From an uncultured Pseudomonadota bacterium (GTDB lineage Bacteria; Pseudomonadota; Alphaproteobacteria; Rs-D84), in the NCBI GenBank assembly GCA_949283535.1, contig CASDTC010000003.1, positions 2,052-66,051 on the forward strand: a stretch of DNA of 64,000 bases. The letters run 5' to 3'. The notes beneath the pieces are model-generated. The model saw only the letters and a list, made by a program, of their open reading frames with translations. It had not been told where the DNA came from and did no database searches. Made by a program: the position numbers and the translations under genes. Shown piece by piece: positions 2,578 to 47,924 of this stretch (position 1 is the stretch's first letter; every line of letters starts with the position of its first letter).

Positions 2578-2808
2578 TTTATCCCCCCGTTTTTTACCAA
2601 CCCGTTGTTAAATTCGGACAACCGAAATTGTCGCCATTACTTAAATACCCCCTGTAATTGCGTGATTAATGCACATAACCCCTGGGTATTACTGCCAGCG
2701 ATTGATGCCGCATTGGCAGAATTTATAACAAACAATGACACAACAAAACCGCCGTTTAGATTCGGCAAAATAAAGGTATAAAAATATGCAGATTTCTGCT
2801 TTTTTATC

Positions 2809-2834
2809 AAAAATAAAACCCCGTAATACGGGGC
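2809..2834 (-). terminator. intrinsic terminator downstream of pheT
   Basis: In minus sense a CCCCG-TATTA-CGGGG hairpin is followed by TTTTATTTTT. Confidence 0.7.
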
Positions 2835-2845
2835 TTTATTCATAA

Positions 2846-5149
2846 TTATTTATCGCGGATTTTTGCACCACATTTTTGTTCAACATTTTTAATAACCGCA
2901 TTTTGCAATTTTAATAAATCATCATCGGTCATATTTTCTGTTGGTATGATTGTTATTGTAAATGCAATTGATTTTTTGCCATCTGGTAATGTAAACGCAT
3001 CAAATACAACCGCGTCTGTTATACGCGCATCTGTTGCAATCGCAGTGTTTATTAACTTTTCCGATGGAAAATCATTATCAACAATAAATGCGAAATCACG
3101 CGTTATTGGTTGAAATTCTGATAGTTCTGGTTCATGTACACGGCGCGTATGTGGCAGATTTTCAACATTATCAATAATTGCAATATTCACACGCGTTTTT
3201 ATTTTTAATGCGCGCGCAACAACTGGTGATAATTCACCAAATTCTGCAATTTTCTTTTTACCCTGGTATATGGCACCATATCTGAACGGATGCACCCAAT
3301 ATGGCGGATTTTCTGTACATACCGTGAATTTTTGACCATGCATCAATGCAATTATATCTGCCTTGACATCGTATATATCACGCGGTCTGTTTCGGTGTGA
3401 CCAATGGCGTGGCGATGTGTTGCCTGTACGAATGATACATATTTGTGTATGCTGTTGGTTTGGTATATCACCATCAAATACGGTTCCTAATTCAAACAGA
3501 TTTAAATCTGGATATCCACGTTTTTCATTTTCAGCAACAAATTCCAGCATATTACCCAATAACCCGTTACGCGCCGTATCCATGTTCGCAACAATCGGAT
3601 TTGCAATCTTTGTTATCGGTGCATCTGATAATACAGATTCTGTTTTTGAATTGCCGAATCCGAATGATTTTACTTCGTTCAATCCACGCGCCGCCATTTC
3701 GCGTTTTATTTCAATATAATAATCACGGTGTGGCGCCGAATCAGACGCTTTGTGTACCGCCGAATTTGCGATATTATCGTATCCATATATACGGATTAAT
3801 TCAGATACTATATTTTCTGGTATTTCAATATCAACCCGTGCAGGGCGCGGTGTAATTATCCATTCTTTATCTGTTTCTAAAACTGTAAAACCCAAATTAT
3901 TTAAAATTTCGCGTTGGGTTTCGGCATTCATTTCAATGCCCGTTTTTTTCATAAATAAATCAGGACTGTATTTAATCTGACGATTTTCAACAGGTAATTT
4001 ACCACCAATTCCAGTACCGACAATTTTGCCACCACATGCGTCTGTTATCATTTTTGATGCCGCAGATAATGCAATGCCCGTTATTGTTGGATCAATGCCG
4101 CGTTCATATCTGTATGATGAATCTGTTGATATTCCTAGTCTTTTGGATGTCTTGCGAACAGATACAGGGTTAAAATATGCGCTTTCCAAAATTATATTTT
4201 TTGTTTTATCGGTTGTCATGCCACGCGCACCACCAATAACCCCCGCCAATGCCAATGCGCCCATATCATCAGCGATAACCATGTCTGTATCGCATAATGT
4301 ATGTTCATTACCAAACAAGTCTGTAAATTTTTCACCGTTTTGTGCCATGCGTACGGTAATATCACCATGAATTTCATCGGCATCAAAGCAATGCATTGGT
4401 TGTCCCATGTCATAGCAAATATAGTTTGTTGTGTCCACAGGGGCATTTTTTGGATTAATGCCGATTGCCGCCAGACGCGATTTTACAACATCATTACTGG
4501 GCGCAATTTTAATACCATGAATTTCACAAAATTGGTATACAGGGCATTTATCTGTTTTTATATTAACACCGCGCGTTGATTTAACTGGTATTAAATCCAT
4601 ATCTGTTGGCGCAATATATTGTCCCGCACCACATGCCGCCAAATCACGCGCAATGCCGCGTACAGATAAATAGTCTGGACGGTTTGGTGTAATACCGGCG
4701 TCAAATATAATTTCTGTATTTAATACCGGCGCACCAATTTTTGTATTTTCATCCAGTTCAATAATGCCACTGTGGTCATCGCCAATGCCCAATTCACGCG
4801 CACTGCACATCATTCCATTTGATATAACACCGCGCAATTTACCAGATTTTATTTCATGACCATCAATCACACACCCAGGCAACGCCAATGCAGACACCAA
4901 CCCAACGCGTGCATTTGGCGCACCGCATACAACCTGGCGCAGTTTTTTTGTACCGTCATCAACCATTAATATATGCAGGTGATCACTGCCATCCATTGGT
5001 GTGCATTCAACAATACGCGCCGCAATTGGTGAAATTGGTGCAACAACATCATCAACTTCCAGTCCGGTGCGTGTCAATTTATCCGCGATTTCATCGGGCG
5101 ATAAATCTGTTTTTAAATAATCTGTTAGCCAATTATATGTCCATTTCAT
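2846..5149 (-). CDS. pheT: phenylalanyl-tRNA synthetase beta subunit
   Basis: This 767-aa protein has a tRNA-binding OB N-terminus (MKWTYNWLTDYL), a B3/4-B5 core and a C-terminal FDX-ACB-like region. It lies directly downstream of pheS. Confidence 0.9.
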   Translation of the reverse strand: MKWTYNWLTDYLKTDLSPDEIADKLTRTGLEVDDVVAPISPIAARIVECTPMDGSDHLHILMVDDGTKKLRQVVCGAPNARVGLVSALALPGCVIDGHEIKSGKLRGVISNGMMCSARELGIGDDHSGIIELDENTKIGAPVLNTEIIFDAGITPNRPDYLSVRGIARDLAACGAGQYIAPTDMDLIPVKSTRGVNIKTDKCPVYQFCEIHGIKIAPSNDVVKSRLAAIGINPKNAPVDTTNYICYDMGQPMHCFDADEIHGDITVRMAQNGEKFTDLFGNEHTLCDTDMVIADDMGALALAGVIGGARGMTTDKTKNIILESAYFNPVSVRKTSKRLGISTDSSYRYERGIDPTITGIALSAASKMITDACGGKIVGTGIGGKLPVENRQIKYSPDLFMKKTGIEMNAETQREILNNLGFTVLETDKEWIITPRPARVDIEIPENIVSELIRIYGYDNIANSAVHKASDSAPHRDYYIEIKREMAARGLNEVKSFGFGNSKTESVLSDAPITKIANPIVANMDTARNGLLGNMLEFVAENEKRGYPDLNLFELGTVFDGDIPNQQHTQICIIRTGNTSPRHWSHRNRPRDIYDVKADIIALMHGQKFTVCTENPPYWVHPFRYGAIYQGKKKIAEFGELSPVVARALKIKTRVNIAIIDNVENLPHTRRVHEPELSEFQPITRDFAFIVDNDFPSEKLINTAIATDARITDAVVFDAFTLPDGKKSIAFTITIIPTENMTDDDLLKLQNAVIKNVEQKCGAKIRDK

Positions 5150-5167
5150 TTTTTATCCCCCGTTTTA

Positions 5168-6115
5168 TTAAAATCCTGTTTTTTGCAACCAGCGCACATC
5201 ACCATCATAAAATTTACGAATATCATTTAATCCGTATTTTAACATTGCCAATCTGTCCCAGCCAAAACCAAATGCAAAGCCCTGGTATTCATCGGAATTT
5301 ATATTACAATTACGCAATACATTTGGATGCACCATCCCAGCACCCATTATTTCCAGCCATTTATCACCATGCCATTTCATATCTATTTCAATACTGGGTT
5401 CTGTAAATGGAAAGTATGATGGGCGAATGCGCAAATCAACATTGTCCATATTAAAAAACCGTTTTAAAAATTCACGAACATCTGCGATTAAATCAGACAT
5501 CGTTATATTTTTATCAATATATAATCCTTCGATTTGGTGGAACATTGGACTGTGTGTTGCATCCATTTCTTTGCGGTATGTTGCGCCAATTCCAAACATT
5601 TTTATTGGTGCGCCAACCGTTTCCATGCTGCGAATCTGGATTGCAGATGTCTGGGTACGCATAACATTGCCATTTTCCAGAAAAAATGTATCTTGCATAT
5701 CACGCGCAGGATGATATTCCGGTGTATTTAATGCGGTAAAATTATGCCAATCATCTTCGACCTCTGGTCCGGTCCACATTTCATAACCGAACGATTCCAA
5801 AATATATGATATATCAGATAAAGTTTGCGTCAATGGATGCAGTGTCCCGCGATTTTCGGGCATTGGATTTAATGATGCGTCCAAACTTTGCGATTTTAAC
5901 GCGGACATTAATGCGGCATTTTCCAAGTCTGATTGACGCTTTTTAAATAATTCGCGCAATTCAGAATTTTCCTGATTTAATGCCGCACGCGCATCATTAT
6001 CCAGATTTTTCATATTTTTCAATTTTGCCGTCATTGTACCATTCTTGCCAAATGTTGCCGTATACAATGCCTGTAATTCTTCCAGCGTTTTTATATTCTT
6101 TATCTGTTCTTGCAT
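5168..6115 (-). CDS. pheS: phenylalanyl-tRNA synthetase alpha subunit
   Basis: Class II motifs are present (FRPSYFPFTEPS, GFAFGFGWDRLAML). The start was trimmed to the ATG at 6115 (MQEQIKN..), which follows a GGGGTGA RBS. The track start at 6181 adds an implausible extension. Confidence 0.9.
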   Translation of the reverse strand: MQEQIKNIKTLEELQALYTATFGKNGTMTAKLKNMKNLDNDARAALNQENSELRELFKKRQSDLENAALMSALKSQSLDASLNPMPENRGTLHPLTQTLSDISYILESFGYEMWTGPEVEDDWHNFTALNTPEYHPARDMQDTFFLENGNVMRTQTSAIQIRSMETVGAPIKMFGIGATYRKEMDATHSPMFHQIEGLYIDKNITMSDLIADVREFLKRFFNMDNVDLRIRPSYFPFTEPSIEIDMKWHGDKWLEIMGAGMVHPNVLRNCNINSDEYQGFAFGFGWDRLAMLKYGLNDIRKFYDGDVRWLQKTGF

Positions 6116-6192
6116 AATTTTCACCCCAGAAACAAAAAGACCGTCATATGACGGTCTGTATAATACAAAATAATACACCACACCGCCATGGT

Positions 6193-6561
6193 TTATTTAG
6201 CATTGGTGGATGTAAATCGTTTTGCTGTTTCAACCAGTTTTGCAAAGTTTGCGTCCCCGGCGTATGCCATTTGTGCCAAAACCTTGCGGTCCAGGGCAAC
6301 ACCCGCCTTTTTCAAACCATTCATAAACTGGCTGTATGTCATACCATTATTACGCGCAGCGGCATTAATACGAACAATCCACAAACCACGAAATTCGCGT
6401 TTTTTCACACGACGATCACGGTATGCATACTGTCCCGCCTTTTCTGTCTTTTCACGCGCAGCGCGATATGTTGAATGATGACGTCCCAAATAACCCTTGG
6501 CACGCGCCAATATCTTGTTATGTTTTTGTTTTACGGTTGTTCCGCGTTTAACTCTTGCCAT
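6193..6561 (-). CDS. rplT: 50S ribosomal protein L20
   Basis: It begins [18 protein letters not shown].. and contains ..YAYRDRR.KKR.FR.LWI.RINAA, the canonical L20 sequence. Confidence 0.95.
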
Positions 6562-6582
6562 AATTCAGCCCCCTATAATTTA

Positions 6583-6786
6583 TTATTTCAATCCGTATGG
6601 GGCCAAGATTTTCGCTTGTCCGACCATATTGTCATTTAAATATTGTGCCTTGGACCCAGCGTTATTCGCACGCTTTGATTTATGGCGCAATAATTTTTTG
6701 TGGGCATTTCTGGCAACACGGATTTTACCGGTCGCTGTCATCGATGCGCGCTTTTTCAAGTACGACTTTGTTTTTAATTTTGGCAT
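6583..6786 (-). CDS. rpmI: 50S ribosomal protein L35
   Basis: It begins MPKLKTKS...KRF-type basic and is 67 aa. It lies upstream of rplT in the classical order. Confidence 0.9.
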   Translation of the reverse strand: MPKLKTKSYLKKRASMTATGKIRVARNAHKKLLRHKSKRANNAGSKAQYLNDNMVGQAKILAPYGLK

Positions 6787-6925
6787 TTTTTGTCCTTTTG
6801 TTTAACACCTGATGGCAAAGCCACAGCCATTTTGGTTTCGTTATACGCGTGATATTTTGGCATATTTAAATGAAAAATCAAGTTTTTATTGAATATCCGC
6901 TTTTTAGTGTTTAAACTTATGCCCG

Positions 6926-7750
6926 ATGGTCCAGAACAAGTTATCTTCCAAATTGCGTACAATTATAAAATCCGCGGTTGCGGCGGCGGTTCTGCCATTG
7001 CTGTTTATATATATAATGATTGCTAAACCAGATTATACACTAATGAATGGATTGGCACATATTGTTTTGCCGGTGGCGAACTGGGTCGGCGATGTTATAA
7101 CATGGCCGGTACGCGCGGTTGGCGCAGCGGTGGAAAATATTCGTGAATTATCTGACTTGCGTGATGAAAACGCACGGTTGCGCAGCGCACTGGACGATGC
7201 ATTAAAAAACAAAAATGCATGTGATATCGCAATGGTGGAAAACCAAAAATTATCCCGCGAATTGGATATAATTCAAAATATGCCACATGACGCCATTGTT
7301 GCAGATGTAATATATGATAACACAGCATTTCATCACAGTAATTTTTTAATAAACAAGGGTGTAAAACACGGTTTAGAAAACGGCATGGTTGTTGTTGCGC
7401 CGGATGGAATGCTGGTGGGGGTCATAATGGATACAGCACCAAGTTTTTCACGCGTACGCGCATTAACAGATTCTGATACAAATATACCAGTCAGAATTGC
7501 TGGGGCCGAAGTATATGGATTTTTGCATGGTAATGGTTCCAGTACACCAACATTAGGATTTTTCAGCGATCCGGAATTTCAACCATCTGCGGGGGTGAAA
7601 CTGATAACCAGTAATATCAGTGGTGTCATGCCAAATAATATATATGTTGGCGAAACAATAAATGAAACAGATGTTGATATACGCCAACCTGGGACATTAT
7701 CGCGTGTTGTAATTTTACAATTCGACAATGCGGATAATAAATATGAATAA
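6926..7750 (+). CDS. mreC: rod shape-determining protein MreC
   Basis: It has an N-terminal TM, a coiled coil (ENARLRSALDDAL) and beta-rich C-terminal domains. It is the first gene of an mreCD-mrdA-rodA block. Confidence 0.8.
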   Translation: MVQNKLSSKLRTIIKSAVAAAVLPLLFIYIMIAKPDYTLMNGLAHIVLPVANWVGDVITWPVRAVGAAVENIRELSDLRDENARLRSALDDALKNKNACDIAMVENQKLSRELDIIQNMPHDAIVADVIYDNTAFHHSNFLINKGVKHGLENGMVVVAPDGMLVGVIMDTAPSFSRVRALTDSDTNIPVRIAGAEVYGFLHGNGSSTPTLGFFSDPEFQPSAGVKLITSNISGVMPNNIYVGETINETDVDIRQPGTLSRVVILQFDNADNKYE

Positions 7751-8208
7751 TGAAAAAAAATATTGTTAATTTTTTACGCGCAGCATTCCCATTTATCACA
7801 GTTATAATACTGTGGCGGTTGGCTGTACCGTTTTGGAATCCTGCTGGAATATTGGCAATCATTCCGATTTTTTATTGTTCATTTGTACGACCGGTGCCAT
7901 GGTTTGCACCATTTGCCGTATTATTTTGTTTCTTGATAGATTATCGTTTTGATACATTGGCATACTGGACAGCGGCATATTGTTTATTTTATGCAATTAA
8001 TGGTTTTCAAAGTTTTATTGATTTAACCCGCACAGACAAAAATGCATTAAATATATTTATGGTATTTTTCGGTGTGGCAACATTAATATTAACACTGACC
8101 GGATTCAGCGTTTCAAATTTAATGCGGGCAGTATGGCTGTTTGCATGGGTCGCGACATTATATATCCCAATTACTGCATTAATAAAAAGGGTGTGCGATG
8201 ATAGATAA
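7750..8208 (+). CDS. mreD: rod shape-determining protein MreD-like polytopic membrane protein
   Basis: This 152-aa protein has about 5 TM helices. Its position between mreC and mrdA, with start/stop overlaps, supports the call. Confidence 0.6.
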   Translation: MKKNIVNFLRAAFPFITVIILWRLAVPFWNPAGILAIIPIFYCSFVRPVPWFAPFAVLFCFLIDYRFDTLAYWTAAYCLFYAINGFQSFIDLTRTDKNALNIFMVFFGVATLILTLTGFSVSNLMRAVWLFAWVATLYIPITALIKRVCDDR

Positions 8209-38194: not shown

Positions 38195-38863
38195 TTAAAA
38201 CTTGTTTCCGGTTTTTTCAAATCGTTTGTGTATGCATCCGATTGTAGTTTTATGTACACCGGCGGTTATGTCATAGTATATAAATCGTCCATCGCGGCGC
38301 GATTTCACAAAATCATCATCCAATAATTTTTTTAAATACTGGGATACTTTTATTTGTGGTATGCCGGTACCAGATACGATTTCTGATACGCATGATTCAC
38401 CATTATATATCAAGTATTCCAGTATGCGCATCTTGTCATAATTTGCAAACAGTTTTATCCGGTTTGCCGCCATTGTTGTATAATCTGTTGGCAAGATTTC
38501 TTTGTGTCCCGTGCGCAGAAATTTTAATTGGTCCGTCATATGACCAAACAGTTTGCGCAGGCAAACAAATATACTGGCGGGGTATTCGCGACATATTTCA
38601 TAATAAATAAATATCCCGCGGCGGTGTGTTTGTACCAAATCTGCATCGCGCATTTTACGCAGTGATTGCGATACTATCATTTGTTCGGCACCAACGGCGC
38701 GTGCAATTGCCGATACAGATGATGCGCCATATACATCCAGATATTCTAGTATACGCAAACGCAGTGGGTGCGCAATATATGTCAACCCGCGGACCGCGCG
38801 TTCCATAATGGCATCTGGTAACATGCATTTTATTTTTACATCTGGCAGAATTTGGTTCGACAT
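38195..38863 (-). CDS. transcriptional regulator with two tandem ArsR/SmtB-type winged-HTH domains
   Basis: It contains two copies of the pattern ..RLRILEYL...G..SV..IA...G......VSQ.L.K.....V...R.G.FIYY.I. Confidence 0.7.
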   Translation of the reverse strand: MSNQILPDVKIKCMLPDAIMERAVRGLTYIAHPLRLRILEYLDVYGASSVSAIARAVGAEQMIVSQSLRKMRDADLVQTHRRGIFIYYEICREYPASIFVCLRKLFGHMTDQLKFLRTGHKEILPTDYTTMAANRIKLFANYDKMRILEYLIYNGESCVSEIVSGTGIPQIKVSQYLKKLLDDDFVKSRRDGRFIYYDITAGVHKTTIGCIHKRFEKTGNKF

Positions 38864-40188: not shown

Positions 40189-40262
40189 GCCCTAATAGTC
40201 TAGTGGTAAAACACGTCCTTGGTAAGGACGAGTCGCAAGTCCGATTCTTGCTTAGGGCACCA
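40189..40262 (+). tRNA. tRNA-Thr (anticodon GGT), CCA encoded
   Basis: The acceptor is GCCCTAA/TTAGGGC-A-CCA and the anticodon arm is CGTCC-TTGGTAA-GGACG. The T-loop is atypical (TCCGATT) and the D-stem has one mismatch. Confidence 0.8.
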
Positions 40263-41778
40263 CTAAAGAATTCTCCCCCGAAAAACTGTTAAATAGCCCG
40301 AAAATCGGGGATAAATTTATAGTCCCAAATTTTTGTTCTTTGTTGTAGGAAATTTTGTCCCTAAAGCACAAATTTAGGACTACTTGTTTGATGTTGTAAT
40401 CTCCATTTTTCCATGCTTCAATGGGGCGTGAAATAAAATCAGATACATATCCGAACGCTTCATCAAATGGTATTAATTCAGGGGTAAAGTTATCAACTTC
40501 TGATTGTAGTGATAATTTCTCTGATTCCAGCGCATTAATTTTTGCGTTAAGTGCCTTTTTCATAACATCGTTTGCGCTGATATATGCGTCAGTGATTAAT
40601 GATTGTTCTTGTTCTATTGCAGATATGCGTTTCTTTTTTTCTTCGTTATTCGCACATGCTGCTTTATTGCGGTTTGAATATTCCCTTGTTGCTAATGCTC
40701 GTGCCAGCGCAATCAGATTCTCTTTCGGGGCAATTTTATTCAAAACCTCTGTTTCAAATTCTTCGTGCAAAATTTGCGGTGATACGTTGGCAAGTTTCTT
40801 TTTAGGGCAGTTCTTGTTTTGACATTGATAGTATGGATATTTGCCGCTTTTCGTCATACTAGCAGTTAACGGGCGACCACACTCGGGACAGGTTATAAAT
40901 CCCTTAAGAGGGAAGCGTTCATCATGTTTGTTGTATTTCTTGTGTCTAAGGCGATTTCGTCCATGTAGGCGGTCTTGGATTAAATCAAATGTCGCAGTAT
41001 CTATTAATGGTTCTATGTGCCATTTTTGTACTGGAATATCATATTTAGGATATGCGAATATACCCGTATATTTGCGGTCGGTTAAGATGCGTTTCACGAA
41101 ATCAAATATGTTTTTTGGGGTAGGGACGCCGGCTAAGTGCATTCTTTCTGTTAAAAAGTTTGCTACATCGGTCTGAGATACTAATTTTGCGCTGGCGAAT
41201 TGTTCTAGGGCTTCTTGTATTATCCCTGCCAATGGTTCTTGTCGTTTTAATTCTTTGCGTGCGCCAATTTTTACGAATTGGTATCCCTTTGGGGGTTGCG
41301 TAATCCAATACCCATTTCTGGCGGCTTCACGCATACCGGCAATAGTTCTTTCTCTGTTCTGGTCTGCGAATAACTCTGCCTGTGCCGCTTCTATTGTTGC
41401 CATGAATTTCCCGACAGGGCTTGTTTCTAAAATCCCTTTGCATGTTGCCAATCTGTGCCCGCATCGTTCCATAGATTTGCGTAATTTAATGAAATCTCCT
41501 GCGTTGCGTGCTAATCGGCTTATGTCATAAAATAATACCAGACGAGGTTCTTTTATTTTTGATAGATAATCTATCATTTCTGCAAGTTGATCACGTCCTT
41601 CGGTTTTAGTTCCTGTTTTTGCCGCATCTATATAAAATTTTTCGATTGTGCAGTTATTCCGTTGTGCCCAAGATTCGCATGCCCATTGTTGTGTATCCAG
41701 ACCGTTACCTTGGCTTACTTGCTTGTCGCTTGAAACCCTGTAATATGCAACTGCTGTATTAATTTTTATTTGTTCCAT
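40252..41778 (-). CDS. large serine recombinase (integrase)
   Basis: This 508-aa protein has a resolvase catalytic domain (AVAYYRVSSDKQ ... ISRLARN), a recombinase domain, a zinc ribbon (CPECG..(16)..YYQC....C) and a C-terminal coiled coil. The stop codon at 40252-54 lies inside tRNA-Thr. Confidence 0.88.
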   Translation of the reverse strand: MEQIKINTAVAYYRVSSDKQVSQGNGLDTQQWACESWAQRNNCTIEKFYIDAAKTGTKTEGRDQLAEMIDYLSKIKEPRLVLFYDISRLARNAGDFIKLRKSMERCGHRLATCKGILETSPVGKFMATIEAAQAELFADQNRERTIAGMREAARNGYWITQPPKGYQFVKIGARKELKRQEPLAGIIQEALEQFASAKLVSQTDVANFLTERMHLAGVPTPKNIFDFVKRILTDRKYTGIFAYPKYDIPVQKWHIEPLIDTATFDLIQDRLHGRNRLRHKKYNKHDERFPLKGFITCPECGRPLTASMTKSGKYPYYQCQNKNCPKKKLANVSPQILHEEFETEVLNKIAPKENLIALARALATREYSNRNKAACANNEEKKKRISAIEQEQSLITDAYISANDVMKKALNAKINALESEKLSLQSEVDNFTPELIPFDEAFGYVSDFISRPIEAWKNGDYNIKQVVLNLCFRDKISYNKEQKFGTINLSPIFGLFNSFSGENSLVVP

Positions 41779-41908
41779 TTTGTAAAACCTTATTAAAAAT
41801 AGTGTTAATTATGATTGTCAGATTATCTCTGCAACACTCTATTTCTTTATCGGTTAAACTAATGTTTTTGAGGTATTTGCGGCATTCTGCCACCGACATC
41901 GTCGCCAT
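41759..41908 (-). CDS. possible 49-aa ORF overlapping the recombinase start (MATMSVAECRKYLKNISLTDKEIECCRDNLTIIINTIFNKVLQNGTNKN)
   Basis: Hand translation shows the ORF ends 20 nt inside the recombinase gene in another frame. No RBS was recognised. Confidence 0.2.
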   Translation of the reverse strand: MATMSVAECRKYLKNISLTDKEIECCRDNLTIIINTIFNKVLQNGTNKN

Positions 41909-41981
41909 AGTGCCCACCAAAAGGTTTGCGTTTTGGCTCCGGTGCTTCCGATAATCAAAACATTGTTTCCTTTCAACATGT

Positions 41982-42806
41982 CTAGTCTGTTATTGCTTTG
42001 TTCTTTTTTTGTGTTTTTCCTTGTAAGTAGCTAACTTTACCGTCTTTTATGGTTAGATTAATTTGCCCGTATCCGATTTTGTTTATAAGATTATGTAAAC
42101 TTTCTGTATCTTTTGGTTTGCTTGCAAAGCTTTTTTCTACCAGGTTTATTCGATTTTTATTTGTTTTTACGGTTATTTCTCTTTTATCGTCTGCGAGACG
42201 GATGTTTTTTATAAGGTTCCATTCACTGTTATATAGCCAAAAAGTATCTTCATCCCATATTTGCATTGTTTTGTCTTTTAGAATTTCTTTTTCTACTTTA
42301 TTAAAGTTAATATAAATATAAGAAGCGGGAATGTTATTGGTTGTTCTATTTAGTGCGATATCTCGTTCTGTAATCACGCCTGTGTTTCCATTGCTATCTA
42401 TCAGAAGATATGTATTACCGTCTTCTATGCTGGTTTTTGAACGCAATAAAGCAAATTCAAGTCTGGTTATTGCGTTTGGGTTATTAGATTCTTGTGCAGG
42501 TAGATAAAGAGAGTTTTTTACTTGTTTAAGTTTTTCAATCGATAGACCAAATTTTCTTAGTTCTATAAGTATTGTCATTAATATTATGTCCATTGTAGAA
42601 AACTTGCGCCAACCTTGTGGTTTTTTGCGTTCGTCATCTAGAATTCCAGAACTTGTCCAACTGTTTATTATTCTAAAAGATAGTGGAGTTTGATTAGCGG
42701 ATTTGTTTCTTTCTCGAAGAGATTGTAAAATTTTGCAGTTGTTTAATTCTACGGCTTGTTGAATTAAATCCAGGTCTTTTTGTGTCCCATCTGTATAGTT
42801 GAACAT
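41982..42806 (-). CDS. MerR/excisionase-like HTH protein with uncharacterised C-terminal domain
   Basis: The start was trimmed to MFNYTDG. The segment FRIINSWTSSGILDDERKKPQGWRKFSTMDIILMTILIELRKFGLSIEKLK follows the MerR-type HTH pattern (yr.l..We..Gll.p.r...g.R.ys..dl..l..i..L...G.sl..ik). Confidence 0.5.
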   Translation of the reverse strand: MFNYTDGTQKDLDLIQQAVELNNCKILQSLRERNKSANQTPLSFRIINSWTSSGILDDERKKPQGWRKFSTMDIILMTILIELRKFGLSIEKLKQVKNSLYLPAQESNNPNAITRLEFALLRSKTSIEDGNTYLLIDSNGNTGVITERDIALNRTTNNIPASYIYINFNKVEKEILKDKTMQIWDEDTFWLYNSEWNLIKNIRLADDKREITVKTNKNRINLVEKSFASKPKDTESLHNLINKIGYGQINLTIKDGKVSYLQGKTQKKNKAITD

Positions 42807-42976
42807 TTTTGTATAACCTTTGTCCTTTACAAAAATATACAACAATGTATAATATTATCAAGTATTTTATACATATTTGTATATTTTTTATAAAAACAAA
42901 ATAAATACATTTTTACAGCCAATTTTTTTGAGAATTCTGCCGTTTTTTGTAATTATTTTATAATAGATTTTCTGTT

Positions 42977-44215
42977 TTAAAATTTATAATCAATCTTGAT
43001 AAGTCCTGTGTGGCTATGAAAATTTTGTCGTGCGCTTAATGAATATTCTATAGACAAACTTATTCCGTTATTGAAAGTTGTTTGTGCTGAAAGACCTGTT
43101 TCTATACCAAATGGATCCCATGATTTAAATGATGCGTTTGCAAAAATATCATGTGCATTATAATAAATTGTTATTTCATCGTTATCATATAAAATATCGT
43201 ATAAAATATTAAATTTCATCTTTATGGAAATGGGGGTTAGATTTATGGTGTGTTTGAGCCCGGTTGTCCATGTTAAAAAATGATTAGAGTCGAAAGATAT
43301 TTCATTACCAATAGAATCGTTATAAGAAACAGGTAAGAGATTCAGATAGCGCAAACCTGTTTCAGCTATAATATTTTGTGGCGTTTTATAGCCCATATTT
43401 ATAACAGTTCCGAAATTTGATGCACTGAAATTATCGATGTTTTTATACTGTGAAAATCCATAATTAAATAATAAACTTAGATACACATTATTAAAATTAT
43501 ACATTGAATATAAATGGATATTATGTATTGAATCATCTTGCGTGAGATTATTTTTATATGTTGTTTCTCCATCACTAAAAGAGTAACTAAAACCCAATAA
43601 CAGGTTGTTTTTAATGTGTTTGTCCATACCTATATGTAAACCGAAAGCAGAACTTGTGAAGTCAGAATAACTATTTTGCTTAAACCAATTATAAGATTCT
43701 GTTGCCCATAATGTTAAGTTGGAATGATAGGGCTCTTGGAATCTGTTATCTATTTGGTTTATATTTGAATAAAATATATTTCTTGTTTTGGCAGAAGTAG
43801 TAAAAACATAGTTTTCTTTGAGTTTTTCAGAAAAATACTCTTTTGCTTGTTTTCGAAGAGATTCTAATATGTAGTCTGCTTCCCAATAGAAGTAGTTTAT
43901 ACTAGGGTTTGTTGCGATGTCTTTCAACGTAACGTTTTTATATTTAAAGGTCGTTGGAGAGTATGGTGCTATATATTCTCCTCCTGAACCATCTGCAATC
44001 CATTCGGTCAATGTTATATCTAAATCCAAGGTTTCTAAATTATAGAAAAAATATGTATCAGATTGCATTGTTGCTGTTCCTGCAGGAACATGTCCAGGAT
44101 CTGCCAAAGAGTATACGGTATCATTGTATGCAGATATTATTGGGTTAATTGCATATGCTGAATTATAAAAATACAATGTAATAAATGTGAACAAGATAAT
44201 ATTTGTGTTTTTCAT
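42977..44215 (-). CDS. autotransporter-like outer-membrane beta-barrel protein
   Basis: The start was trimmed to MKNTNIILF.. (signal peptide ..NSAYA). The C-terminal 250 aa show alternating beta-strand patterns and end in ..IDYKF. A short N-terminal passenger of about 150 aa precedes the barrel. Confidence 0.55.
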   Translation of the reverse strand: MKNTNIILFTFITLYFYNSAYAINPIISAYNDTVYSLADPGHVPAGTATMQSDTYFFYNLETLDLDITLTEWIADGSGGEYIAPYSPTTFKYKNVTLKDIATNPSINYFYWEADYILESLRKQAKEYFSEKLKENYVFTTSAKTRNIFYSNINQIDNRFQEPYHSNLTLWATESYNWFKQNSYSDFTSSAFGLHIGMDKHIKNNLLLGFSYSFSDGETTYKNNLTQDDSIHNIHLYSMYNFNNVYLSLLFNYGFSQYKNIDNFSASNFGTVINMGYKTPQNIIAETGLRYLNLLPVSYNDSIGNEISFDSNHFLTWTTGLKHTINLTPISIKMKFNILYDILYDNDEITIYYNAHDIFANASFKSWDPFGIETGLSAQTTFNNGISLSIEYSLSARQNFHSHTGLIKIDYKF

Positions 44216-44487
44216 TTTTTTCCTTTTATGCAAAAAGACCGCCACGGGAATGACGGTCGGGCATTTTCAAAATCATAACGTGAATGATCCCATGGATTTC
44301 GGCGAACCTGTTGTATAGCCACAGATACCCGACCACAAGGTCAGGCAATAAAAGTGTGAAACACCATTTTTGCCGTAAAATCGGATAACGATGTTTTCAC
44401 ACCGCACGTTATGGGTTTTGAAAGCCCCCGAACCCATATCCCTATGGATTCGGAGTTATTTTAATATATGTGTGTAATCATTGCAAA
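44216..44487 (-). promoter_or_regulatory. structured leader/attenuator upstream of the OMP gene
   Basis: In minus sense the terminator is GACCGTCA-TTCCCG-TGGCGGTC plus U5 (plus 44232-58), 17 nt before the ATG. Mutually exclusive pairings link 44328-34 with 44339-45, or 44328-34 with 44255-61. G-U pairs form only in minus sense. Confidence 0.5.
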
Positions 44488-45090
44488 TTAAAATAATTTC
44501 GTTATTTCAGATATGATTGGCGCAAAAAATGTCATATGTGCTGCTGCGGACTGTATAAAGTTATTATATTTATCCATAAACCTTGAGCGGTTATTTGCAG
44601 AAATCGCTATTTTCATTTCTTCAATGCTGTTCAGGATGTTTTGTACAACTTCTTTGCTATCCGGCACTTGGGCGGCGATTGCTTTCATTTTATCAAAAAT
44701 TTCCAATTGGTCGTGATTTATGATATTTGTGACCGAATTATCCACTGAGCCAAAATTTACACGCGACCCATCCCCAGAAACTGAAATATTTACCCCACTT
44801 GCGTTTATTGTATCTTTCGTACGAGTGCGGTTTAACCCATTCACTTCGTCGTATCCACTTTCCGTAAGAATGTTAGGGGCAGTGATAAATCCTTTGCTTA
44901 CCATATCGTTCCAAATTTCATCAAAGTTATCTTTAATGTGTTGGCATTGTTCAAGTATCAAAGCACGTCGGATTGGTCGAGTTGGGATATACATGGTACC
45001 GTCTTGTCCGCGTGACGCAAACTTCCGCAACAAGTCATATAAAAAGGCTCTCGTATCGTCAAGTGCATTTTGTTTTGCTATATCGGTCAT
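44488..45090 (-). CDS. hypothetical protein (200 aa), partner of the AbiTii-like gene
   Basis: It starts 4 nt after the upstream gene. The central Asn/Ser-rich segment GVNISVSGDGSRVNFGSVDNSVTNI echoes the C-terminal tail of the upstream protein (GSTVNIASTDNSII). Confidence 0.55.
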   Translation of the reverse strand: MTDIAKQNALDDTRAFLYDLLRKFASRGQDGTMYIPTRPIRRALILEQCQHIKDNFDEIWNDMVSKGFITAPNILTESGYDEVNGLNRTRTKDTINASGVNISVSGDGSRVNFGSVDNSVTNIINHDQLEIFDKMKAIAAQVPDSKEVVQNILNSIEEMKIAISANNRSRFMDKYNNFIQSAAAHMTFFAPIISEITKLF

Positions 45091-45094
45091 TGTA

Positions 45095-45727
45095 TTATCC
45101 TTTGTTTATTATTGAATTGTCGGTTGAAGCTATATTTACAGTTGAGCCAGCACTGGCAATTATACTTATGCTGGAAATTTCAGGGTTCTTTTGTGCTTTT
45201 GATATTTCCTCGTTGGTAAAAGATAAGTTTTCCCCTAAAATTCCATTTTCTTCTAGTTTTAATGCCCATTCTAAAAGATTGTGCCGCACCGTTCCAAGAA
45301 TTGCCGAAATTGCATATCTTGTATAGAATACTGCCATTTGCATGGGTATTGTAAGCATATTATTGGCGACTGACGACAAAGGGGACATTAAGGTATTGTT
45401 TTCCTTACCAGCAGATAAAGACGCCTCTAATTCCGCAATTGAACTTGTCAAGTGTACAGTACTTAGAGTTTTTTCTGTTTCAAAGTCGGGGCATTGAATA
45501 TAAATCCACCCACGCATAGGGTTAAACGCTTTTAATACACCATGTATTTCTCGGTATTCAGGTAGATTATTTGCGTCGGGATATCCCTTAATTTCATTTT
45601 CTATGAATTCCCTTGATTCTGATATTTTTAATTTTCGTGCAATAAAGTAGGCTTTATTTAACGCGCTTAACAGACTAGCATTTGGGTCCATTAATTCTTT
45701 TTGCAAATCTATAACGATACTTGCCAT
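45095..45727 (-). CDS. AbiTii-like abortive-infection family protein
   Basis: N-terminal LLSALNKAYFIARKLKISESREFIENEIKGYPDANNLPEYREIHG and later VRHNLLEWALKLEENGILGENLSF fit the AbiTii domain pattern as recalled (L.KA..lA.kL.......W...EL.GY......P.YR). Confidence 0.55.
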   Translation of the reverse strand: MASIVIDLQKELMDPNASLLSALNKAYFIARKLKISESREFIENEIKGYPDANNLPEYREIHGVLKAFNPMRGWIYIQCPDFETEKTLSTVHLTSSIAELEASLSAGKENNTLMSPLSSVANNMLTIPMQMAVFYTRYAISAILGTVRHNLLEWALKLEENGILGENLSFTNEEISKAQKNPEISSISIIASAGSTVNIASTDNSIINKG

Positions 45728-46026
45728 AAGTTATACCTTCTCTTTTTGGTAGAGGTTATATCACAAAACCTGTCAAATCAAGTTTATATCTTTAAATATT
45801 CCTGTTCTTTCATGTGGTTAGTATAGGAACTATCTGCGCTGGGAGACAAATCCGCCGTTTGCGACGCGCAATATTAGCGATTTTGGGCGGCTTTTTTAAC
45901 CGTATTTTGACGATGTTAAAATGGTGGTTTATGGCCTTGCTAACCGCCTTGCTACTTTTTTGATTTATTGATTAATAAATCAGTGTGCCAGATACGAAAT
46001 AATAACGTCGTTTTTTACGTGGTTAT

Positions 46027-46956
46027 TTATTCTATTGGCAATATTTCCATTAAAGTATATGAGGTTTTTTCACTTGTATTATTTATAGTTATTTTCTTAG
46101 CTAATTTAAAATTATAGGCTTTGCCAGTGGTTTGTTCGTGGGCTAGATTTGCGTCTATTGTACCAGTTATTACTTCATCTTCGTTATCTTCGTCTAATTT
46201 TATATTAAAAGACGAAGTTGCATAATTAAACCCTTGCAATATGCCGTCTATCAGAATTTCTTCTTCAAATATTTGTGGTTCTGTCGGTTCTAGGGCTTTT
46301 TTGACTCTGTTTAATCTAGACAACTCAACATGTTTTGATACTTCATTGTCCGTGGATTTGTCCCATTTTATTTCTGCTGATATATTATTTTCTATGTGAC
46401 TATTGACCCATTCTTTCAATGCTTTAAAAGTCCCTAATCCGTATTTAGAAATCAACTCTTTTATTGACTCAGGGCTCTCTGTATTAATCATTTTTAAAGT
46501 TTCTTTCATAGCAAAATCAATATCAGAGCCAAATAAATTGTCTTTTTGAGCTTTTAGCGTCAATGCGATTCCAATAGAACCAGAATAAGTATAGGCGAAA
46601 CCTAATAGTGTCTCTTCTTTTGCCTTTTTTGTGATTCTGACATTATTCTTTGGTTTCTTTAATGTAATGGAATCATACACCAAAGAAAACAGATTTTGAA
46701 AACTATCTATAATGTCAGTTATCTGGGAAAATCCAACCCGTTCATTTACACAAAGCCTATAATCTAAAACAGATTCTTCCATTTTCGCTGCTTCCTCTGC
46801 AAAAGCAGCCTTTAATTCCTCACCAAACTTTTCTACGGACTTCAGAGAAATAGCCAATCCAAAATCGTTCGGATTTTTTGCCAATTCTGATTGCAGTCTT
46901 GTGATTTCCGCATTGTTATCAAATAATCTGGATTGGATTTCCAGTAAAGTAGACAT
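46027..46956 (-). CDS. hypothetical protein (309 aa), downstream partner of the nucleotidyltransferase
   Basis: It shares one nucleotide with the stop of the upstream gene (ATG at 46954-56). The N-terminus is coiled-coil-like and no known domain was recognised. Confidence 0.55.
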   Translation of the reverse strand: MSTLLEIQSRLFDNNAEITRLQSELAKNPNDFGLAISLKSVEKFGEELKAAFAEEAAKMEESVLDYRLCVNERVGFSQITDIIDSFQNLFSLVYDSITLKKPKNNVRITKKAKEETLLGFAYTYSGSIGIALTLKAQKDNLFGSDIDFAMKETLKMINTESPESIKELISKYGLGTFKALKEWVNSHIENNISAEIKWDKSTDNEVSKHVELSRLNRVKKALEPTEPQIFEEEILIDGILQGFNYATSSFNIKLDEDNEDEVITGTIDANLAHEQTTGKAYNFKLAKKITINNTSEKTSYTLMEILPIE

Positions 46957-47438
46957 TACTTGCCTCCATTTATTTGAATTACAGCTAAGCCTTTTAAGGT
47001 TTTGTCTCTATTAAAACAAAATAACCCTCTCCAATAAGCCATACCATCTATATCGGTTGTTGGTCGTGCATACACATCACAATGGCATCTGCATTTTAAA
47101 TCATCGTGGTTAGATACACACATATATAAAAAATTATTTATACAACTAACTTTTTCAGCAGAATATGGTTTGTTTGGGTCAAATTCTACCAAGACGTCTA
47201 TGTCTTCAGGATTTTCTTTTTCTGTGATAAAACTGCCGTCCACCCACACATCACACATCAGACCCGTGTTGGTCAACGGTATGATAAAATTTTCCACAAA
47301 ACTATCAAAAATGGTAGAACGTGTTGCCGAATTTGGAAAATTTTCCACGCACAAGGTCTTAACTTCCTCCAAAGTTTTGTTATGAAACCCTGCGGGCAAT
47401 AATCCCGGAAACGACAACTTATCAGGCATTTCTTTCAA
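46956..47438 (-). CDS. minimal pol-beta-fold nucleotidyltransferase (DUF6932-like)
   Basis: LLPAGFHNKTLEEV ... DVWVDGSFITEKENPEDIDVLV ... KGLAVIQI matches the remembered DUF6932 pattern (LPPG.H..t..Ef ... y.DGSFvT.K..P.D.D ... kGii.i.l), including the GS...D.D NTase catalytic motif. Confidence 0.6.
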   Translation of the reverse strand: MKEMPDKLSFPGLLPAGFHNKTLEEVKTLCVENFPNSATRSTIFDSFVENFIIPLTNTGLMCDVWVDGSFITEKENPEDIDVLVEFDPNKPYSAEKVSCINNFLYMCVSNHDDLKCRCHCDVYARPTTDIDGMAYWRGLFCFNRDKTLKGLAVIQINGGK

Positions 47439-47452
47439 TCTCTCTTTGCTAT

Positions 47453-47481
47453 ATTATACCACAAAATTGGTTAAATTACAA
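47453..47481 (-). promoter_or_regulatory. strong sigma70-type promoter of the NTase operon
   Basis: In minus sense it reads TTGTAA - 17 nt - TATAAT, with an extended -10 TG. Confidence 0.5.
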
Positions 47482-47564
47482 TTTGTTTACACAGAATAGA
47501 GGAAAAAAACGATAAGTCAAATTATTTCAAGATGTTATTGATAAGTATATTCCTATATACATTC

Positions 47565-47828
47565 TTATTCTTGTCCGGTGTTTAGTGGGTTGAAAGCCCG
47601 CTTATCTGTAAAACCGCCATTCACAACGTGCAGGATTTCACAAATCCCGCTTTCCTTAATAATCCTTGCATTTCGCATTATTTCATTATAAAATCTGTTC
47701 CAGTTGTCCCAACTTTTATGCAGTAGGGGCACCAGAAAATTTTTTGGGCATGCGTGTGATGATATGACTGACAACCATGGAATGCGCAAAACCCAGTAAA
47801 AGTTATAAGACAGGGTGGCACCGCGCAA
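47565..47828 (-). CDS. 87-aa ORF of doubtful status (possible gene remnant at the island edge)
   Basis: No RBS or family was recognised. The composition is closer to core sequence, and the ORF spans the tRNA-3'-like 11-mer at 47724-34. Confidence 0.2.
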   Translation of the reverse strand: MRGATLSYNFYWVLRIPWLSVISSHACPKNFLVPLLHKSWDNWNRFYNEIMRNARIIKESGICEILHVVNGGFTDKRAFNPLNTGQE

Positions 47829-47924
47829 TGCTATATTTGCGCCCCTGGAATTTAAATTGTGGGTGCCGTTTCAGATATTTGTATGAATTTGGTACCCAAC
47901 AGTAACAAAAAGGGTCCAAAAAAA

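Follow-up and report, generated by a model that had tools for sequence, protein, structure and literature searches.

Several two-gene modules built around a nucleotidyltransferase (NTase) of the pol-beta superfamily have been described in prokaryotes. In the type VII toxin-antitoxin (TA) system HEPN-MNT (MntA-HepT) the gene of the NTase stands first and that of its partner second, and their open reading frames (ORFs) overlap. AbiE and MenAT are likewise two-gene TA or abortive-infection (Abi) modules around such an enzyme. PD-T4-10 (Vassallo et al., 2022) is a validated Abi TA system in which the first gene encodes the antitoxin and the second the toxin (PMC9519451). In addition, the PADLOC collection contains the PDC systems, 145 computational phage defence candidates nominated for their embedding in BREX, DISARM or type I restriction-modification (R-M) loci (bioRxiv 10.1101/2024.01.29.577857). 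The present work deals with a pair of genes, A and B, in a stretch of 64,000 nucleotides (the window) from an uncultured Pseudomonadota bacterium of the alphaproteobacterial lineage Rs-D84 (GenBank assembly GCA_949283535.1, contig CASDTC010000003.1, positions 2,052 to 66,051). Judged by its sequence, this locus is a bona fide member of the PADLOC candidate PDC-M63, with which it shares the two-gene architecture and the gene order, and whose hidden Markov models (HMMs) match both window proteins over their full length; PDC-M63 is itself a computational candidate.

Compared with HEPN-MNT, the window pair likewise has a minimal pol-beta NTase in first place, a partner in second place and coupled translation, and the fold and weak Pfam matches of protein A point to MNT-type enzymes; the logic proposed below, in which the NTase would nucleotidylylate its partner, is taken by analogy from that system. 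The window pair differs from it in that B is not a HEPN protein but a polypeptide of 309 amino acids (aa) with three other domains, and in that the family of A is DUF6932 rather than MNT in the strict sense. It also departs from AbiE and MenAT, since A has no AbiEii match, is about half the size and acidic, the NTase comes first, which reverses the gene order, and B is unrelated to the AbiEi and MenA antitoxins, although a preferential loss of A would fit an NTase acting as toxin. PD-T4-10 resembles the window pair in having two overlapping ORFs of similar sizes, and one B homologue matches PD-T4-10_B at 1.4e-5. On the other hand, the window proteins A and B gave no match to the PD-T4-10 HMMs, and HHpred found no NTase or other domain in PD-T4-10A and none in either PD-T4-10 protein, so that homology of the pair to this system is unproven.

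Results

Identity of the gene pair

Protein A matched PDC-M63A (PDLC04744) at E = 2.2e-35, with residues 7-157 on profile positions 3-150 of 152, and the Pfam family PF22014 (DUF6932) at E = 8.9e-25. Protein B matched PDC-M63B (PDLC04747) at E = 3.5e-18, with residues 1-305 on positions 1-308 of 309, as well as three more B models. Both also fell into PHROGs of unknown function (phrog_9194 for A, E = 4.7e-30; phrog_6603 for B, E = 4e-10). The sequence marks of PDC-M63, namely the A HMM, the B HMM and adjacent genes on the same strand, are thus all present. The family assignment extends to the homologues, DUF6932 being matched by 101/101 A sequences and PDC-M63B by 145 of the 149 B sequences. 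The nearest named NCBI protein (P0005) is about 38% identical, and the window pair is a divergent PDC-M63 member. No match was obtained by tblastn with the window B and a Klebsiella B against GenBank phages and PLSDB plasmids, nor by blastn with the Klebsiella pair against complete E. coli genomes.

An earlier note on this DNA, made from the sequence letters, had presented the pair as a candidate novel module with an unrecognisable second protein. The claim of novelty falls, since both proteins are full-length members of a catalogued candidate and of PHROGs 9194 and 6603, and for the same reason B is unrecognisable to Pfam, NCBIfam and the PDB only, the description standing for these three collections and failing for PADLOC (PDC-M63B) and PHROGs (6603). 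The pair is real and merits study, but it is already catalogued.

Co-occurrence of A and B

An exhaustive profile search for B homologues, clustered at 50% identity, returned 704 clusters at E ≤ 1e-3 and 201 at E ≤ 1e-30, nearly all of 300-320 aa. Loci were collected from genome, metagenome and viral collections by a degenerate DNA pattern for the B motif Y-x-[FY]-x-G-S-x-G-x-[AV]-x-T and then searched with the A and B HMMs; B was present in 185 of them, and about 120 were informative, that is, had enough DNA on both sides. All but about three of these informative loci have A, intact or disrupted, directly in front of B on the same strand, and in 98 both genes are intact, so that the pairing, which the earlier note had named as a check, holds across genomes. 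The exceptions are two loci with a truncated B (L021 and L135) and a third, L176. The hosts belong to more than 10 phyla and include Alpha-, Gamma- and Deltaproteobacteria, Acidobacteriota, Planctomycetota, Chloroflexota, Nitrospirota, Verrucomicrobiota, Cyanobacteria, Spirochaetota, Firmicutes, Mycoplasmatota and Elusimicrobiota.

The stop codon of A and the start codon of B overlap in 42/65 genome loci; the 4-nt overlap ATGA accounts for 31 and a 1-nt overlap for 5, and in most other loci the two codons are within 12 nt. Pairwise identities of A and B correlate over 104 pairs (r = 0.70, Mantel 0/999; r = 0.50 among distant pairs only). A and B are inherited and moved as one unit. In L176 (96-2204), an intact B with an N-terminal extension of about 130 aa stands without A, behind a gene of the SLOG/LOG family (PF03641, LDcluster4), where a different nucleotide-handling partner may have taken the place of the NTase.

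Gene A

The pol-beta signature of A reads WVDGSF...PEDIDVLV, that is DGSF-x9-DID, which conforms to the pattern hG[GS]-x9-13-Dh[DE]h, with D118 as the third carboxylate. In the numbering of the 157-aa protein, G65, S66, D76 and D78 are invariant or nearly so among 59-101 homologues, G14, R37 and W133 are invariant in 101 sequences, and D64, T69, P74, C117, D118 and G147 are conserved at ≥90% of these 101. The AlphaFold2 (AF2) model of A is confident (pLDDT 93.3). Its best Foldseek matches in the PDB are weak, with E of 0.016-0.3 and TM of about 0.3-0.35, and comprise the Sulfolobus minimal NTase 2rff, the MNT antitoxin of HEPN-MNT (7ae2_B, 7ae9), HI0073, AadA/AAD(9) and the palm of pol β/λ. 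Secondary Pfam matches in the A family were also weak (NTP_transf_2 in 18/101, Polbeta in 13/101); AbiEii was matched by 0/101 at E ≤ 0.1, and PADLOC gave no AbiE match for the window proteins. The best profile match among PDB sequences was to the active-site region of a CD-NTase, and it too was weak (E = 0.019). The family is acidic, with a median pI of 5.1. Taken together, the sequence data suggest that A is a divergent, MNT-like minimal NTase with an intact catalytic motif, and probably an active one.

Gene B

Protein B had no match in Pfam, NCBIfam or PDB sequences, and no meaningful Pfam match was found among 149 B homologues; the profile search against PDB sequences returned coiled-coil noise only, the hairpin matches being designed coiled coils. 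The model of B is confident (AlphaFold pLDDT 93.3, pTM 0.88) and has three parts: an N-terminal helical hairpin (residues 2-27 and 32-58), a central α/β domain (about 59-225) and a five-stranded barrel (about 228-307). Foldseek against the PDB gave neither a full-length match nor one for the central domain, while the barrel aligned to OB folds, among them CusF, the OB domain of the ExoVII large subunit, RPA32/14, Rim1 and cold-shock domains, with probabilities of 0.9-1.0 and E = 4e-3 to 0.2, in agreement with a five-stranded OB-like architecture. F250 and Y281 are conserved in this barrel. B is acidic (median pI 5.6), and the median net charge of the barrel, -5, speaks against nucleic-acid binding by that domain.

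Conservation peaks in the central domain. G126, S127 and G173 are invariant in 149 sequences, Y66, R67, F86, Q87, G129, W183 and W198 are conserved at 95% or more, and K103 (K/R), T133 and D147 at about 90% or more; G126-S127 sits in the turn of a β-hairpin. The segment G126-S127...D145-x-D147 was considered as a degenerate NTase motif and rejected, as 17 residues separate its two parts, and D147, the only conserved aspartate in it, lies at the start of a helix. An assignment of B as HEPN was rejected too: a regex search found no R-x4-6-H motif, and there was no HEPN match in Pfam, PADLOC, PDB sequences or the fold search.

Three predicted viral structures in BFVD share most of the architecture of B, namely a siphovirus 'DUF6575 domain-containing protein' (E = 7e-14 over 267 columns), the Leptospira phage LE1 protein Q6NE06 and a myovirus protein. 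DUF6575 is one of the domains listed for the validated E. coli systems of Vassallo et al. (2022); a link of B to PD-T4-10 through this domain was tried and not established.

Promoter and gene junction

The ORF listing shows two minus-strand frames, 46956..47438 (160 aa counted from a TTG) and 46027..46956 (309 aa). The junction reads GGC AAG TAA TGT, where the TAA stop of gene A (46958-46956) and the ATG of gene B (46956-46954) have base 46956 in common. In an alignment of upstream regions, the ATG at 47429 and the codons after it are conserved, and the identical database protein P0006 has 157 aa; for these reasons gene A is taken as 157 and not 160 aa long. The sigma-70-type operon promoter (Table 1) scored 10/12 with TG in a promoter scan. 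Sites resembling promoters are common in DNA as rich in AT as this (24 in the scan vs 16.6 +/- 3.3 in shuffles); the -35 box, the TGn and the position of the -10 are nonetheless kept upstream of homologous pairs, in the window and in three other genomic contexts. Further upstream, TTGAC and TTTTTTT are invariant across the window and the loci L105, L109 and L112, and TTGACT-16-TATTCT scored 9/12.

Most of what the earlier note had read from the letters at this locus stands: the DUF6932 minimal pol-beta NTase with its DGSF...D.D signature, the promoter TTGTAA-17-TG-TATAAT, the single nucleotide shared by stop and start codons, the lack of a HEPN R-x4-6-H motif in B, and its coiled-coil-like N terminus, which is the helical hairpin of the model. 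Translational coupling, which it had deduced from the junction, is borne out by the overlapping or close A/B junctions common among homologues. Its NTase ORF is also right, with the length corrected as above, and no housekeeping family, a match to which it had named as an outcome that would speak against its idea, was matched by B.

Insertion sequences as vehicles

Of the 107 genes directly next to the pair in distant genomes, most are housekeeping genes, and 13 are IS1595-family and 3-5 IS1-like transposases. Within the fetched flanks of the 185 loci, tblastn detected an IS1595-type transposase in 36 and an IS1-like one in 19. In five loci from Acidobacteriota and Planctomycetota hosts, L064 (241-2941), L081 (~5177-7856), L073, L024 and L042, transposase, A and B make up an IS1595-type unit of 2.7-2.9 kb, bounded by inverted repeats GGnnAT..ATACTTGAC, which we take to be of the ISNwi1-group type of ISfinder, and flanked by perfect 8-bp duplications (CTAATAAG, CAAAAATG, TTTGCGGA, GTTGAAAC and AAACGTTT). 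A second, unrelated DDE transposase, IS1-like, is joined to A and B in L031 (~4637-7289), L090 (~2624-5568) and L055 (~2858-5514), with GGTAGTG.. inverted repeats and duplications of 8-9 bp (CTCTCAGG, CCCTGGCAC and AAGAAGCT). All three IMG/VR viral contigs matched by the B motif (3/3) carry the pair.

The window copy differs from these units of about 2.7-2.9 kb, which occur in other phyla: it lies on a serine-recombinase island, and neither an inverted repeat of the IS1595 type nor such a transposase was found around it. As a self-contained cassette, the pair has thus been captured on independent occasions, by an integrative island and by at least two families of DDE transposons.

The island and its neighbours

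The region of about 40,250-47,735 is 100% identical to the metagenome contigs L001, L003 and L006, while the flanks of L001 are 72-85% identical, with 88% identity for AspRS and 94% for UvrB among the flanking housekeeping proteins. The octamer GGGCACCA occurs in just two copies in the window, at 40255, on the 3' end of the tRNA-Thr, and at 47727, on the identity break. This segment looks like an integrative island at tRNA-Thr(GGU) that has recently passed between related species. Counted from the tRNA-Thr end, its genes are the large serine recombinase, a MerR-like gene, an autotransporter, a 200-aa gene, AbiTii, B and A. In L105-L108, which represent a more distant relative (about 74% DNA identity), a pair 69-75% identical occupies the same aspS/tRNA-Thr slot, and the recombinase, AbiTii and the second GGGCACCA copy are all absent. 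Two close relatives of the pair (73-74% identity) are found in defence islands, one between a type I R-M system and an AlwI-type R-M system with a KAP NTPase (PDC-S20) and PDC-S57, the other beside AbiO/Nhi and Mrr.

The Abi-family neighbour mentioned in the earlier note is the AbiTii gene (Table 1). It is followed after 4 nt by the 200-aa gene, which has no Pfam or PADLOC family and a weak phrog_16834 match (both within 44488-45727, minus strand), and the two look like another Abi-type operon of two genes, lying immediately downstream of the pair. Three further observations concern the surroundings. The autotransporter gene has a GC content of 28-30% at 42500-43500, against 35-41% around it. 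Outside the island, PADLOC Csa3/CasR models match the wHTH domains of a 222-aa protein (38195-38863, minus strand), which has two winged-helix domains of the ArsR/TrmB type and is encoded in a 2.2-kb tRNA-Met/tRNA-Thr stretch missing from L105-type relatives. A T-box leader upstream of aspS (47689-47849, plus strand) was discarded, probably being a chance match, with 20.8 bits against a gathering score of 93 and E = 0.12.

Table 1. Features of the PDC-M63 locus and its surroundings, in positions of the window.
Feature	Position	Strand	Remarks
Gene A, minimal nucleotidyltransferase DUF6932, 157 aa (PADLOC PDC-M63A)	46956..47429	-	stop TAA 46958-46956
Gene B, 309 aa (PADLOC PDC-M63B)	46027..46956	-	helical hairpin 1-58, alpha/beta domain 59-225, acidic OB-like beta-barrel 226-309
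Shine-Dalgarno GGAGG for gene B	46963..46967	-	inside the 3' end of gene A, 6 nt 5' of the ATG at 46956; read from the sequence
Operon promoter, sigma-70-type	47453..47481	-	-35 TTGTAA (47481-47476), 17-nt spacer, extended -10 TGgTATAAT (47461-47453), TATAAT = 47458-47453
Upstream TTGACT box, then T-run	47493..47520	-	putative second promoter or operator; ~40 nt upstream
Island bearing the pair, ~7.5 kb	40263..47735		identity break against L001/L003/L006; starts at the tRNA-Thr(GGU) 3' end
Large serine recombinase	40252..41778	-	Resolvase + Recombinase + Zn_ribbon_recom; tRNA-Thr end of the island
tRNA-Thr(GGU)	40189-40262		
AbiTii-domain gene, 210 aa	45095..45727	-	Pfam PF18864 1.3e-38; PADLOC AbiTii 5.5e-42; beside the pair, not part of it

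Discussion

We tentatively propose, as a possible reading and the one we prefer, taken by analogy from HEPN-MNT, that the module is a type VII-like TA or Abi system in which A nucleotidylylates a protein, most likely B, and thereby keeps B inactive. A and B would form a stoichiometric complex, and A would use a nucleoside triphosphate to modify a protein and not a nucleic acid, a preference suggested by the acidity of both proteins and by the charge of -5 of the B barrel. The most likely target would be B itself, at the invariant exposed Gly-Ser127 loop or at Tyr66/Arg67, and the modification would hold the conserved central domain of B inactive. Phage infection, or loss of the mobile element, would then cut the supply or the activity of A and release B as a growth-arresting effector, and addiction of this kind would account for the carriage of the pair by insertion sequences and islands. 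The proposal draws on the NTase-first order and the ORF overlap, which match MntA-HepT and PD-T4-10, where the second gene is the toxin, and on the minimal NTases of the size of A, all of which, where characterised, act to our knowledge on a partner protein (cf. MntA-HepT). In its favour, too, are the co-variation of A and B, the conserved catalytic residues of A, the AbiTii gene beside the pair and the R-M, AbiO/Nhi and Mrr genes around its close relatives, the match of one B homologue to PD-T4-10_B, and the changes at polar sites of B in A-disrupted loci that are described below.

Several observations weigh against this proposal. The likeness of A to MNT proteins is weak (Foldseek E ≥ 0.016, TM about 0.35, with a CD-NTase as the best PDB profile match at E = 0.019), and no recognisable toxin domain was found in B. 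In the only published test of the family, a prophage-borne PDC-M63AB was deleted in its native host, E. coli NILS69, and infection by ten phages was unchanged (PMC12409345), so that the TA or defence activity expected in the earlier note is unproven. The defence neighbourhood which that note had set as a check was found for the close relatives of the pair, with their R-M, KAP NTPase, AbiO/Nhi and Mrr genes, and is sparse in distant genomes, where PADLOC defence genes make up only about 10 of the 107 immediate neighbours; defence neighbourhoods are thus frequent for the pair, not universal. Finally, 10 informative loci have a disruption in A only and 2 in B only, despite the double length of B (binomial p about 5e-4); a constitutively toxic B that depended on A would not be expected to outlast A in this way.

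This asymmetry favours the reverse polarity, in which A would be a toxic NTase that, like MenT or AbiEii, modifies some essential molecule of host or phage, and B its neutraliser and the sensor of infection. NTase toxins of that kind exist, a multi-domain B with a ligand-binding-type barrel would suit a sensor, and at least one loss of A is genuine, since in L070 (1531-2971) a 1.4-kb insertion with a 431-aa ISL3-like transposase interrupts gene A and leaves B full-length. Other disruptions in the count may be frameshift errors of metagenome-assembled genomes, and one apparent case, L033 (6041-6455; Mycoplasmatota bacterium zrk7), was rejected and left out of it: the split of A there is an artefact, because this genome uses genetic code 4, in which the TGA found at the conserved Trp of WVDGSF is read as Trp. 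Moreover, near-invariant polar sites of B are changed in 5/9 A-disrupted loci vs 20/103 intact pairs (Fisher p = 0.025), the changes being S127C, R67G, D147T (in L070) and K103S with D147R, which fits a prior inactivation of B. Yet four A-disrupted loci keep B without change at the conserved sites checked, as the reverse polarity would have it, and the p value weakens to 0.065 once two copies of one element are merged. The evidence on the polarity of the toxin, A being lost more often and B being mutated when A is lost, conflicts. With an A of only 157 aa, acidic, MNT-like and from a family with no AbiEii match, whereas the characterised NTase toxins are larger and bilobed, we regard a toxic A as unlikely.

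Two further explanations would take the pair out of immunity altogether. The genes might encode a two-subunit NTase for small molecules, for example one that inactivates an antibiotic or a toxin, and be ordinary adaptive cargo of transposons. Aminoglycoside and lincosamide NTases are acidic, as A and B are, AadA and AAD(9) appear among the weak fold matches of A, passenger status in IS1595- and IS1-like units with target-site duplications is the classical setting of resistance genes, and the unchanged phage infection after deletion and the housekeeping neighbours in distant genomes would both be expected. This is nevertheless quite improbable in our judgement, as the pair keeps company with R-M, Abi, Nhi, Mrr and KAP-NTPase genes in the window and in the closest relatives, the PDC-M63 family has been found embedded in BREX, DISARM and R-M loci, B is unlike the helical C-terminal domains of ANT enzymes, and no resistance family was matched in NCBIfam. 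Alternatively, the pair might serve the mobile elements themselves, regulating or assisting transposition or integration with no role for the host, as could be argued from the transposase homologues of either type in the flanks of 55/185 loci, from the eight complete units of transposase, A and B with inverted repeats and perfect 8-9 bp duplications, and from the position of the window pair, which closes a serine-recombinase island. In most loci, however, no transposase lies close by, L105-L108 keep the pair without any recombinase, and the recombinases that carry it are of three unrelated types (two DDE families and a serine recombinase), which speaks for generic cargo or an addiction module and against a dedicated cofactor; we consider a function confined to the elements very improbable.

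A more far-reaching form of the type VII-like proposal is that the pair represents a new mechanistic class of NTase-based TA or Abi module, in which a DUF6932 enzyme would nucleotidylylate a partner whose overall fold is without a PDB match and which has an invariant Gly-Ser loop and an acidic OB-like barrel, the self-contained cassette having been captured repeatedly by at least two unrelated families of insertion sequences and by islands. By analogy this is conceivable, and we hold it to be somewhat doubtful. New in this work are the quantified co-occurrence and coupling of the two genes, the three-domain organisation of B with its invariant Gly-Ser loop and acidic OB-like barrel, the status of the pair as a passenger of insertion sequences with target-site duplications, the 7.5-kb tRNA-Thr island and the asymmetry of the pseudogenes.

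An active PDC-M63 would be a widespread addition to the known defence or addiction systems (704 clusters at 50% identity; hosts in more than 10 phyla), with a protein B for which there is neither a Pfam model nor a solved structural relative, and it would take NTase-mediated control beyond HEPN partners. The intact pair within IS1595- and IS1-like units of about 2.7 kb offers a concrete instance of a TA-like or defence cassette on board minimal insertion sequences, which bears on the spread of defence genes and on the persistence of some insertion sequences. Should the pair prove to be a new class of module, small insertion sequences would be vehicles for immune or addiction genes.

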